In this document: one piece after another, positions 2,887 through 5,508 of the stretch
Numbering within the stretch: the first letter of the stretch is position 1
Layout of the letters: each line of letters starts with the position of its first letter
Assembly: GCF_022846255.1 (NCBI RefSeq)
Contig: NZ_AP025682.1
Origin: Escherichia coli
Lineage (GTDB): Bacteria > Pseudomonadota > Gammaproteobacteria > Enterobacterales > Enterobacteriaceae
DNA length: 64,000 bases
Reading direction: 5' to 3' (one strand)
Notes under the pieces: model-generated
Seen by the model: the letters and a program-made list of their open reading frames with translations, nothing else
Told to the model about the DNA's origin: nothing
Database searches by the model: none
Made by a program: the position numbers and the translations under genes

Positions 2887-3816
2887 ATAGAGGGAGCGTG
2901 GGGGCAGCAGGATGAAATGTGTTGTGATGCCGGTACGCTGGCATTGTGCAAAATGCCGGCGCTACTATTGTGGAAATCAGCCCTGTCCCTGGTGCTGGCG
3001 ATACTCCCTGCAGACATTCTCCGGTCAGCCAATAGGTTGTTGCTCTTTCCTGATCGATTCGTCATTCCATTCTTTTTGTTTATAATGGGCATTACACTGG
3101 TGTTGGCGTGTTTACCTGCGTGTCTGCACCGGTTCAGTAAAATTAGAAAAGTTCAGAGTCGGGGGAAATCCGGCGTTTTGTTCAGCAGGCGGTGGATCAC
3201 TGGCCAAATCTGTTGGCATTTCACTTCACGTTCCATTCGACAGAAGGAAACATCTACGGGCAACAGATTCATGCATTCTGCACTTCCTTTTACCAACAGA
3301 TACACAAACGTATTACTGCACGTACTCACACGACCAGTCCATCATCGCCGTTGGTGTTACACTGGCTGCTGGAACAACATGGAGGAGCAGTAATACGATG
3401 CGTATTGCTCCTCAGCCAGACGAGTATTTGTCATCCGCGAGCCAGCGTCACGGTTGATGAAGAATGTTCGAAACTGGTGGATTTATTGCAACAGATCTGG
3501 CCAGTGATAAGCACTGGCGGACAATGCCAAGTGGAAAGGTGTTTTCAGGTTGCCCGGGGTGATACATCAGAGCAATACGTTGCGTTAAAAACAGATGCGT
3601 TGTCGTTTGCTGTGTCGGATCACAAATCATCCGGTGCAGAGTAGTATTCTGGCTGTATTCTGGTAAATCAGCGTATTATCGATATATTATCGTACTATCA
3701 GAAACCGTATCGTCTGTTGATGGCTAGACTGGCCCCCCTGAATCTTCAGACAACCAATATCACTTATTTAAGTGATAGTCTTACTACTAGTTTTTAGACT
3801 AGTCATTGGAGAACAG

Positions 3817-4175
3817 ATGATTGATGTCTTAGGACCGGAGAAACGCAGACGGTGTACCACTCAGAAAAAATCGATATTGTTCAGCAGAGCCTTGAACCGG
3901 GGATGACAGTCTCTCTCGTTGCACGGCAACACGGTGTGGCAGCCAGTTATATCTCTGGCGCAAGCAATACCAGGAAGGAAGTCTCACTGCTGTGGCTGCC
4001 GGAGAGCAGGTTGTTCCGGCCTCTGAGCTTGCTGCCGCCATGAAGCAAATTAAAGAACTCCAGCGCCTGCTCGGCAAGAAAACGATGGAAATGAACTCCT
4101 TAAAGAGGCCGTCGAATATGGACGGGCAAAAAAGTGGATAGCGCACGCCCCTTATTGCCCGGGGATGAGGAGTAA
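3817..4175 (+). pseudogene. insC: IS2 insC (OrfA) disrupted by multiple indels
   Basis: IS2 insC start ATGATTGATGTCTTAGG present at 3817, but reading frame is broken repeatedly relative to the canonical IS2 sequence as recalled. Confidence 0.7.
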
Positions 4176-4198
4176 ACGTCGTCAGTCGTTGTCGCCGG

Positions 4199-5038
4199 GT
4201 GTCGCATGAGCAGTTGCACATCATTCTCAGACGAAGTGATGACTGGAAGGATGGCCGCCGCAGTCTTCACACTGATGATACGGATGTGCTTCTCCGGATA
4301 CATCATATCATCGGAGAGTTGCCCACGTATGGTTATCGTCGGGTATGGGCGCTGCTTCGCAGACAGGCAGAACTTGATGGTATGTCTGCGATCAATGCCA
4401 AACGTGTTTACCGGAACATGCGCCAGAATGCGCTGTTGCTTGAGCGAAAACCCGCTGTACCGCCATCGAAACAGGCACATACCGGCAGAGTGGCCGTGAA
4501 AGAAAGTAATCAGCGATGGTGCTCTGACGGGGTCGAGTTCCGCTGTGATAACGGAGAGAGACTGCGTGTCACATTCGCGCTGGACTGCTGTGATCGTGAG
4601 GCACTGCACTGGGCGGTGACCACCGGCGGCTTCAACAGTGAAACAGTACAGGACGTCATGCTGGGAGCGGTGGAACGCCGCTTCGGCAACGATCTTCCGT
4701 CGTCTCCAGTGGAGTCGCTGACGGATAATGGTTCATGCTACCGGGCTAATGAAACACGCCAGTTCGCCCGGATGTTGGGACTTGAACCGAAGAACACGGC
4801 GGTGCGGAGTCCGGAGAGTAACGGAATAGCAGAGAGCTTCGTGAAAACGATAAAGCGTGACTACATCAGTATCATGCCTAAACCAGACGGGTTAACGGCA
4901 GCAAAGAACCTTGCAGAGGCGTTCGAGCATTATAACGAATGGCATCCGCATAGTGCGCTGGGTTATCGCTCGCCACGGGAATATCTGCGGCAGCGGGCTT
5001 GTAATGGGTTAAGTGATAACAGATGTCTGGAAATATAG
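4199..5038 (+). CDS. insD: IS2 InsD (OrfB) transposase catalytic ORF
   Basis: 279-aa ORF near-identical to IS2 InsD over most of its length ([23 protein letters not shown]...DDE region); N-terminus differs from canonical. Confidence 0.8.
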
Positions 5039-5049
5039 GGGCAAATCCA

Positions 5050-5508
5050 AACATAGGTTGAGGTGTTTTGTCCATGCAGACGAATGCAATTAGCGACGTT
5101 GACTCCGGCCTGACGAGTTTGCTCTAGTAATGTTTCTCCATAAAAATCATTGCCTACAGCAGATATCAGATGTACATCCCGGCCCAGCAAAGCGAGATTA
5201 TGAGCGATATTGCGACCTACCCCACCAGCAGAGCAATAAATTCTGCCTGGATTAGAGGAGGTCTGTGGATAACTTATATCCGCTACACCACGAATATCCA
5301 TGTTAATCGCACCCAATGCGACACAATATTTTTGTTGAGTCAAGATGTAACCTTTACCTTTGATAGCCCCTTTACGCATTAGATCCATTATGTGCGCAGC
5401 GACACGCGAACGACTGATCTGCAAAATATCAGCAATTTCACTCTGTTGAATCAGTGGATTACGTCGCAGGATGCTGAGTATTTCTTTTTCTCTGTGATCC
5501 ATCGGCAT
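5050..5508 (-). pseudogene. yeiI-like HTH-sugar kinase (PfkB family) 5' fragment, truncated by IS2
   Basis: N-terminal ~150 aa (MPMDHREKEILSILRRNPLIQQSEIADILQISRSRVAAHIMDL...GAINMDIRG...GGVGRNIAHNLALLGRDVHL) match the YeiI-type wHTH + ribokinase-like fold; coding sequence runs into the IS2 right end at 5049. Confidence 0.7.

Follow-up and report, generated by a model that had tools for sequence, protein, structure and literature searches.

The interval 3725–5508 of the stretch of Escherichia coli DNA analyzed here (the window: 64,000 nucleotides of contig NZ_AP025682.1) holds an IS2 copy and, next to it, a truncated gene, and it raises the question of how an insertion sequence came to stand between two flanks that do not match. 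The first-pass annotation, which had remarked on the absence of a target duplication and on several indels in insC, attributed the arrangement to an adjacent deletion or to IS–IS recombination rather than to a simple insertion. We addressed the issue by a three-way alignment of the window with IS2A of E. coli K-12 MG1655 (381260–382590; IS3 family, IS2 group) and with the IS2 relic of FDAARGOS_536 (NZ_CP033762.1, locus L001, labeled "IS3 family transposase, frameshifted"), both being stand-ins for the actual parental copies. The window element measures 1,325 bp, versus 1,331 bp for IS2A, and both of its termini are exact: the end at 3725 begins with TAGACTGG..., the end at 5049 closes with ...GGGGCAAATCCA, and the terminal inverted repeats (TAGACTGGCCCCC... 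and ...GGGGCAAATCCA) are present at both. Exact ends enclosed by a 5-bp duplication, the pattern that would have spoken for a simple insertion, were looked for; the ends are indeed exact, but the duplication is absent, with ATGGC on the left and AACAT on the right, whereas in the same alignment K-12 IS2A is flanked by ATTAC on either side.

The transposase of IS2 is encoded by two overlapping genes, insC (orfA) and insD (orfB), which are joined by a −1 frameshift at an A6G motif. The window element shares with IS2A the inverted repeats, this gene order, the A6G motif, and the exact ends, but both of its open reading frames (ORFs) are broken. Relative to IS2A it carries five indels, namely an additional C at 3733 within the left inverted repeat, three in insC (−1 after 3863, −4 after 3939, and −1 after 4088), where several had been anticipated, and, where insC and insD overlap, a −1 after 4148, which breaks the start of insD. 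What stays open of insD, a 279-aa ORF, matches positions 24–301 of the 301 of NCBIfam NF006918 ("IS2 transposase TnpB"). With neither insC nor insD intact, the copy is a pseudo-element, immobile on its own. Its decay is uneven. Identity to the reference is about 95% overall, falling to about 93% at 3725–4621 and reaching 99.5% at 4641–5049, so that the earlier description of a degenerate IS2 holds for the left two-thirds and not for the right third, which is canonical.

The two parts resemble different IS2 variants. All 64 sites at which the window equals the relic and not IS2A fall in the left part, between 3733 and 4621, and 40 of the 42 at which it equals IS2A and not the relic lie within 4641–5048 (64/0 vs. 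2/40; Fisher P = 3e−27). Left of the switch the window differs by about 0.4% from the relic, sharing its left flank, junction, and left 897 bp save for 4 sites, and by about 7% from IS2A; right of it, the difference from IS2A falls to 0.5%, that is, 2 differences in 409 bp, and that from the relic rises to about 10%, the right third of the relic being itself diverged and carrying a 7-bp deletion. The segment 3725–5049 is thus a hybrid in which two distinguishable variants of IS2 meet at one switch point.

Such a single switch argues for homologous recombination between IS copies and against a deletion made by a transposase, which settles the choice that the first-pass annotation had left between the two. 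An adjacent deletion mediated by the transposase or by an IS-excision enhancer is a recognized cause of missing target duplications (PMC11708052); here it would have started from one IS2 and taken out the DNA up to the kinase gene. However, a single element would be uniform, the left part of the hybrid encodes no functional transposase, and IS2 forms circles and does not use replicative intramolecular transposition (PMC3299598); we consider this explanation very unlikely. By contrast, the two signs of IS–IS recombination, each flank deriving from a different insertion and one switch of sequence type, are both found here, and this process is documented to remove target duplications (PMC11708052). 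We conclude that the hybrid was very probably made by homologous recombination between two nonidentical IS2 copies, and it is because two copies recombined that both ends of the IS can be exact although the pentamers come from different insertion events. The coordinates of the features are collected in table 1.

Table 1. Features of the IS2 hybrid and of its right flank (window coordinates).
Feature	Position	Strand	Remarks
Left flanking pentamer ATGGC	3720–3724		Part of the relic's insertion site; flank and junction at least 99% identical in 149 complete E. coli genomes
Hybrid IS2 pseudo-element	3725–5049	+	Left, IS2 relic; right, canonical IS2
Left inverted repeat, relic type	3725–3766	+	One C inserted at 3733, one C>T substitution (alignment)
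insC (orfA) remnant	3817–4175	+	Three indels; frame stops at 3906 after 30 codons; A6G motif kept at about 4126–4133
insD (orfB) remnant	4134–5038	+	Open part 4199–5038
Crossover interval, relic type to canonical IS2	4622–4640		Last relic-type site 4621, first canonical-type site 4641
Right inverted repeat, canonical	5009–5049	+	Ends ...GGGGCAAATCCA; identical to IS2A
Right flanking pentamer AACAT	5050–5054		Presumed target of the canonical IS2; single copy in the intact gene
Fusion ORF, 179 aa	4963–5502	−	151 kinase codons and 28 codons from the right end of IS2
YeiI-family gene, 5′ part	5050–5502	−	Codons 1–151 of 364; wHTH and first third of the PfkB domain
Upstream inverted repeat	5565–5608		63–106 nt upstream of the kinase start; here TATTACTCAGGAAA-N16-TTTTCTGAGTAATA, perfect (TTTCCTGAGTAATA) in intact loci

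The visible exchange interval is 19 bp long. Nineteen base pairs are short for a RecA-mediated exchange, although the interval adjoins a 44-bp identical block and heteroduplex repair can move the visible switch point; dependence of the event on RecA is what we would presume.

The left side of the hybrid can be followed in other genomes. In 149 complete genomes of E. coli, the frameshifted relic is found at this same left junction (identity of at least 99%), and the left flank and junction of the window are 99.8% identical to those of relic-bearing genomes. There, however, the relic runs into another right flank, a LacI-family module not present in the window. The right end of the FDAARGOS_536 relic, which reads ...CAAATTTA, adjoins this module and may preserve a degenerate duplication (ATGGC/A-GGC); as no empty site was found, an artificial join of the two flanks of the relic matching in no genome, its original duplication stays uncertain. 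Elsewhere the right-hand partners of the relic are this LacI module (L001) and, in an O111:H8 genome (L012), the LEE island. Overall, the same left flank and relic end are seen joined to three partners, and the IS2 sequence on the right-hand side is different for each. These partners are a yeiI/IclR module in the window, a LacI/sugar-acid module in genomes of the FDAARGOS_536 type, and, in O111:H8, the LEE pathogenicity island, reached via IS1203 and a third IS2 variant. On this basis we tentatively suggest that the relic, at its fixed backbone site, may serve as a recurrent "docking" homology for the swapping of whole cargo modules.

On the right, the IS2 terminus precisely abuts codon 151 of a YeiI-like gene encoding a helix-turn-helix kinase, as had been proposed, the fragment matching positions 1–151 of the 362 of the NCBIfam profile NF007416 and being 80% identical to residues 1–151 of K-12 YeiI. 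Pfam domains HTH_24 (residues 1–48, E = 8e−11) and PfkB (58–151) were recognized. With 308 bits, below the curated cutoff of 561 bits, and without a complete PfkB domain after its wHTH, the fragment is a truncated member of the family. It is the 5′ part of the gene, as previously noted, although not its 5′ third but 41% (151/364 codons), and its likely start is not at 5508 but at 5502, an ATG that follows AGGAG by 7 nt. As the C-terminal half, which binds ATP, is missing, the truncated kinase is predicted to be dead.

We found the uninterrupted gene on three metagenome or SRA contigs (L013, L025, and L026). These loci read GGTGATAGA-AACAT-AGGTTGAGG, and the break in the window falls exactly at the single AACAT; over the 453 nt of the fragment, there is no difference from the genes of L025 and L026. 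P0123, the intact ortholog, shares 72% identity with K-12 YeiI over 359 aa and scores 693 bits (cutoff 561). A first protein search with the 151-aa fragment had given fragments only, the best at 89%, and the intact ortholog surfaced via the C-terminal half of the paralog of E. coli M217. Past the kinase, the intact contigs encode psuT-like (86% identical to K-12 PsuT), psuG-like (90%), and psuK-like (75%) genes. None of these genes was detected by tblastn in the window, from which this accessory pseudouridine-type cluster is thus missing. The uninterrupted target had no match in GTDB species representatives, a search of JGI metagenomes recovered only the already known contig L026, and extension of the intact contig via its transporter and MFS proteins returned the same single contig. 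At 90% identity the lost transporter forms a cluster of just two proteins, both metagenomic, whereas the fusion ORF described below is on record from 37 contigs.

The intact allele and the partners of the relic also bear on a simple IS2 insertion whose 5-bp duplication and ORFs would later have decayed by point mutation. The left two-thirds of the IS2 are clearly old and mutated, as that history would predict, but the right third is essentially unmutated. Moreover, the flanks of the hybrid are nowhere contiguous: in the intact target AACAT is surrounded by kinase sequence, the left flank leads in other genomes into the LEE island or the LacI module, and no empty site joins the two flanks of the relic. 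This scenario is hardly conceivable.

The relationships of the truncated gene can be further specified. K-12 YeiI (b2160) is an uncharacterized wHTH-PfkB sugar kinase (NF007416/PRK09954) with the same domain order, and the function of YeiI is described as uncharacterized (PMC9061257). The window gene is, however, an accessory paralog cut after codon 151, not the core yeiI: the latter sits 3 nt after nfo in K-12, whereas the intact accessory gene directly adjoins the psuT-, psuG-, and psuK-like genes, with an inverted repeat of its own upstream. Similar in organization is the M217-type "psuK-psuG-nupC-sugar kinase" cluster of E. coli, present in 377 complete genomes, which has the four-gene layout of the intact locus and also adjoins a YagK/YfjJ-AlpA island backbone bearing an IS2-relic fragment. 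At the nucleotide level it is only about 80% identical (82% in the part matching the kinase fragment), the proteins agreeing at 88.7% along 151 aa; its upstream regions are unrelated and have no inverted repeat.

The inverted repeat upstream of the window gene has survived, as anticipated, its arms (5565–5582 and 5591–5608, given before as 5566–5607) being complementary at 16 of 18 positions. The DNA fold z-score is −2.9, and when the intergenic region was shuffled 300 times, an equally good repeat arose in 3 cases. A role as a shared operator was considered and rejected, the half-site occurring nowhere else in the intact locus and being found upstream of neither the M217 paralog nor K-12 yeiI. 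A scan of 4950–5800 for promoter and terminator consensus sequences found nothing.

Truncation has also created a fusion ORF, whose product NCBI labels "winged helix-turn-helix transcriptional regulator." An identical 179-aa protein (P0185; BDH31965.1, EFH8442898.1, and others) occurs on 37 contigs and is on record from E. coli genomes at NCBI. As a weaker addition to the docking idea, this conserved fusion protein might persist as a regulator in its own right, with the inverted repeat upstream as its site of action.

Because short-read assemblies are commonly broken or misjoined by IS copies, two separate IS2 loci might have been misjoined via their shared sequence, and contigs L009 and L010 do end at the IS2 boundary. 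The scar is nonetheless not an assembly artifact, since at least 17 independent loci (NCBI drafts, ENA metagenomes, and Logan assemblies) carry the identical junction and crossover sequence. At least 15 loci with the identical hybrid come from different assemblers and projects, the fusion ORF lies on contigs of up to 4.94 Mb, and one Logan contig, assembled from k-mers, passes straight through the hybrid. A misassembly is thus extremely unlikely.

Among 5,426 complete E. coli genomes, neither the chimera nor the right flank was found, the best right-flank match being 82% and the best full-length IS2 match, of the relic type, 97.1%. The left parent type is found in L001; neither the reciprocal product nor the parental kinase::IS2, which would have AACAT at either end of the IS, was found, the reciprocal junction GATAGAAACAT|TAGACTGGCCCCC having no match in JGI metagenome contigs. 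There is no second IS2 copy within the window, where both end patterns occur once each. Two candidates for such a copy were discarded: a 279-aa ORF at 23794–24633, which belongs to an unrelated IS3-like element, and an element at about 20912–22250, which shows no more than 66% identity to IS2. An inversion or a translocation is only indirectly excluded.

The most likely history comprises two steps. One parent would be an old, transposase-dead relic, about 7% off IS2 and with five indels, at a fixed site (left flank ATGGC) in the backbone shared by a family of E. coli genomic islands. The other would be a canonical IS2 that transposed between codons 151 and 152 of the yeiI-like wHTH-PfkB kinase gene, with AACAT as its target; the figure-of-eight and minicircle pathway of IS2 yields simple insertions (PMC3299598, PMC3219604). 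After this insertion, which presumably came first, homologous recombination with the relic would have removed the intervening DNA, a crossover within 4622–4640 joining the left 897 bp of the relic to the right 409 bp of the canonical copy and setting the island backbone beside the 5′ 41% of the kinase gene. The right part of the relic, the left part of the canonical copy, the 213 C-terminal codons of the kinase, and the adjacent psuT-, psuG-, and psuK-like genes would thereby have been lost from the locus.

An intermolecular version differs from this history only in topology. In that case, the yeiI-side segment (5050 to about 21,000) would have arrived on foreign DNA with a canonical IS2 in the kinase gene and recombined with the resident relic, and the lost genes would never have been in this chromosome. 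The segment 5052–13000 has no match above about 82% in the 5,426 complete genomes, other IS elements bound the yeiI-side segment on the right, and the relic has other right-hand partners elsewhere, all of which fits an import. On the other hand, no donor molecule was identified, a plasmid search giving no close match, and the data do not separate import from intrachromosomal deletion. We regard import as possible but less likely, and retain IS–IS recombination with loss of the intervening DNA from the locus as the most likely course.

What the locus shows is a rearrangement scar of an ordinary kind on a genomic island of E. coli, a well-understood phenomenon in which nothing would surprise a specialist. 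The IS–IS scars of the E. coli long-term evolution experiment (PMC11708052) likewise have one IS between formerly distant flanks and pentamers of different insertions; recombination between identical copies leaves no trace of the crossover, whereas here it is visible because the parent copies differ in sequence, which makes this locus a clean natural case. The value of the finding lies mostly in annotation: the "IS3 family transposase, frameshifted" and the 179-aa regulator (BDH31965.1) are two halves of one scar, and the latter is no genuine small regulator but a YeiI-family kinase that has been cut short and fused to IS2 sequence. For the family itself, the intact allele directly links a YeiI paralog to paralogs of psuT, psuG, and psuK, a small hint that YeiI proteins may take part in pseudouridine or nucleoside metabolism.

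The insertion sequence that the first-pass annotation had placed at 3725–5508 was aligned with IS2A, the 1,331-bp reference copy of E. coli K-12 (L003:1761–3091), and proved to stop at 5049. The several insC indels noticed at that stage are borne out, as is the mismatch between the flanking sequences: the copy carries five indels overall, of which those of −1, −4, and −1 bp lie in insC, and it is flanked by the pentamers ATGGC (left) and AACAT (right); because these differ, there is no target duplication. The same alignment returned ATTAC at both flanks of IS2A, which validates this way of reading the ends. 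Exact ends with a 5-bp duplication had been named as evidence against the reading; the ends are exact, and the duplication is absent. The insC remnant runs for 30 codons before a stop, and the insD remnant is a 279-aa ORF (4199–5038) that aligns to positions 24–301 of the NCBIfam profile "IS2 transposase TnpB."

Features of the IS2 copy, of the truncated kinase locus, and of the intact locus on L013
Feature	Position	Strand	Size or change	Detail
IS2 copy	3725–5049		1,325 bp	starts TAGACTGGCCCC, ends GGGGCAAATCCA
Indel	3733		+1 C	left inverted repeat
Indel	after 3863		−1 bp	insC
Indel	after 3939		−4 bp	insC
Indel	after 4088		−1 bp	insC
Indel	after 4148		−1 bp	insC/insD overlap
YeiI-family fragment	5050–5502	minus	residues 1–151	winged-helix plus PfkB
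Inverted repeat arms	5565–5582 and 5591–5608			upstream of kinase
Transporter	L013			86% identity to K-12 PsuT
PsuG homolog	L013			90%
PsuK homolog	L013			75%; NF007355, 606 bits
MFS transporter	L013			

Over the 1.2 kb left of the element, the sequence is 99.8% identical to a region common in E. coli (149 genomes at ≥99%). In strain FDAARGOS_536 (L001), the same flank and the same junction are followed by an "IS3 family transposase, frameshifted" and, beyond this relic, by a LacI-family regulator and sugar-acid genes, none of which occur in the window. When the window copy was aligned jointly with IS2A and the L001 copy, all 64 sites at which the window agrees with L001 and differs from IS2A fall within 3733–4621, the five indels included, while 40 of the 42 sites at which it agrees with IS2A and differs from L001 fall within 4641–5048, among them a 7-bp stretch missing in L001 (Fisher exact p = 3e-27). 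Because the L001 copy is roughly equidistant from IS2A on both sides (~7% divergence on the left, ~10% on the right), it is a relic that is old throughout, and it is the window copy that is hybrid, with its switch point inside the 19 bp at 4622–4640. We did not find this hybrid in complete RefSeq E. coli genomes, where the best full-length match (97.1%) is of the relic type.

On the other side, the kinase fragment covers positions 1–151 of the 362 in the YeiI equivalog profile (NCBIfam NF007416, PRK09954) and shares 80% identity with the same residues of K-12 YeiI; it is thus the 5′ part of a YeiI-like gene, as had been proposed, with 41% of the codons kept rather than a third. Its start is likely the ATG at 5502, 7 nt past an AGGAG, and its frame runs on for 28 codons inside the right end of IS2. 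The resulting 179-aa fusion ORF (BDH31965.1, EFH8442898.1, GDA45312.1, HAV8064417.1), named "winged helix-turn-helix transcriptional regulator," is present on 37 contigs, the largest of 4.94 Mb.

Among 5,426 complete E. coli genomes, none matches the right flank closely; at 82% over 451 nt, the nearest is a "sugar kinase" that lies next to psuK, psuG, and a NupC-type transporter, an arrangement present in 377 genomes, for example M217. When the C-terminal half of this M217 paralog was used as a protein query, an intact ortholog (P0123, 364 aa) was retrieved, identical to the window fragment at 150 of 151 residues. Its contig (L013, ENA ERZ27287602) is 98.6% identical to window 13206–5049 and, past the equivalent of 5049, continues with the remainder of the kinase and four further genes (see table). 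The intact gene is also found on SRR10800393 and ERZ1749178 contigs, with 0/453 nt differences from the fragment. In window orientation, the uninterrupted allele reads GGTGATAGA-AACAT-AGGTTGAGG and the window ...GGGGCAAATCCA-AACAT-AGGTTGAGG, so that the right junction is a precise IS2 terminus with AACAT present once, as would be expected of a transposase-made joint. We searched the window for the kinase C-terminus and for psuT-, psuG-, or psuK-like genes and found none. At 90% identity, the lost transporter falls in a cluster of just two proteins, both metagenomic, against the 37 contigs with the fusion ORF, which suggests that the lost genes are absent from chimera-bearing strains, not relocated. 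The psuK-psuG-nupC-yeiI-like cluster of M217 (L002, NZ_AP019189.1, 1141–9110) is paralogous to the intact L013 allele, with ~80% nt identity overall. It likewise adjoins a YagK/YfjJ-AlpA island backbone, in which a piece of the same relic is found, inverted and 90% identical to window 3724–4071.

Loss of target duplications through IS–IS recombination or adjacent deletion is well documented (PMC11708052), and the first-pass annotation had left both open in preference to a simple insertion. The chimeric IS2 favors the former. An adjacent deletion made by transposase is very unlikely, since IS2 transposes by a figure-of-eight and minicircle pathway that results in simple insertions (PMC3299598, PMC3219604), the left part of the element encodes no transposase, and a single element would keep one sequence type throughout. 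The simplest account is a two-step history, in which a canonical IS2 would have inserted into the kinase gene at AACAT and then recombined homologously with the resident relic, the visible exchange lying at 4622–4640; this would have joined the island backbone to the 5′ side of the kinase and removed the intervening DNA. Recombination between two insertions leaves each flank with the pentamer of a different insertion, as in the window. The exchange could have been either an intrachromosomal deletion or one accompanied by import of the rare yeiI-side segment; a search of JGI metagenomes for the predicted reciprocal junction gave no hit.

L004–L008 and L015–L024 all share the exact junction and the same 60 bp spanning the crossover, while L009 shows the junction alone, its contig ending before the crossover. 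Because these loci were obtained in several projects and built with more than one assembler, the hybrid is a real structure and has become fixed in a lineage. Further decay has taken place in sublineages: L021 (GCA_037643135.1) lacks window 3588–4343, a loss that takes in the last part of the left flank together with insC and the left end of IS2, and several strains among L015–L018, L020, and L021 have an IS605-type TnpB gene in place of window 11458 to ~20900. The k-mer-based contig L007/L024 (Logan SRR15406770_104) passes uninterrupted through the hybrid, which suggests that this strain has no second IS2 copy to branch the assembly graph. The 5,426 complete RefSeq E. coli genomes offer no match above ~82–87% identity to window 5052–13000, a segment that dozens of draft and metagenome assemblies carry with the same scar.

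The inverted repeat upstream of the kinase survives, as previously noted. It lies in a 740-bp region separating the kinase from divergently oriented small ORFs, and all three intact loci have perfect 14-bp arms, TATTACTCAGGAAA-N16-TTTCCTGAGTAATA, 63–106 nt upstream of the start. The window and all 17 truncated loci covering the region share a G>A change in one of the arms (window 5595–5608), which weakens the palindrome. Of 300 shuffles, 3 gave a repeat of equal quality, and the DNA fold has a z-score of −2.9. The intact locus has no further copy of the half-site, nor was one found upstream of the M217 paralog or of K-12 yeiI, which starts 3 nt after nfo. A reasonable guess is that the repeat is a candidate operator for the protein's own winged helix.

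The relic end is joined to different right-hand modules in different lineages. In E. coli O111:H8 (L012, NZ_CP077499.1, 5305–7846), this left flank recurs with the first 96 bp of the relic; an IS1203 insertion comes next, and after it a third IS2 variant, free of indels and 94% identical to IS2A, whose right end abuts GCGAC ~0.85 kb upstream of ler in the LEE island. The relic could thus be a recurrent recombination site. Within the window, an IS2-group relative at ~20912–22250 (IRL TGAGCTGGCCCCCTGAAATACCAGACA, 66% identical to IS2) and an IS3-like element at ~23397–24640, directly adjoining ORF 22312–23397, bracket an E. coli-rare segment together with the hybrid IS2. The predicted membrane protein of ORF 10429–11739 (minus strand) contains an (NHE)n tract, which comes from a perfect tandem repeat of 9 bp at 11171–11226 (TCGTGATTC x6.2). 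The number of copies differs between related loci: the gene is called at 408–448 aa, and alignments break at the repeat. The right end (48000–64000) extends to the core genes speC and yqgA and to tyrosine recombinases, which gives the window as a whole the look of a mosaic island beside the yqgA/speC region.

All components belong to known families, namely IS2, a YeiI-family kinase, and an IS–IS recombination scar, and the function of YeiI is still uncharacterised (PMC9061257). The initial reading is supported and can be narrowed to IS–IS recombination. What is mildly new is confined to three points: the crossover can be seen directly, the intact allele places a YeiI paralog in tight linkage with paralogs of psuT, psuG, and psuK, and one relic end stands beside different modules, lineage by lineage.
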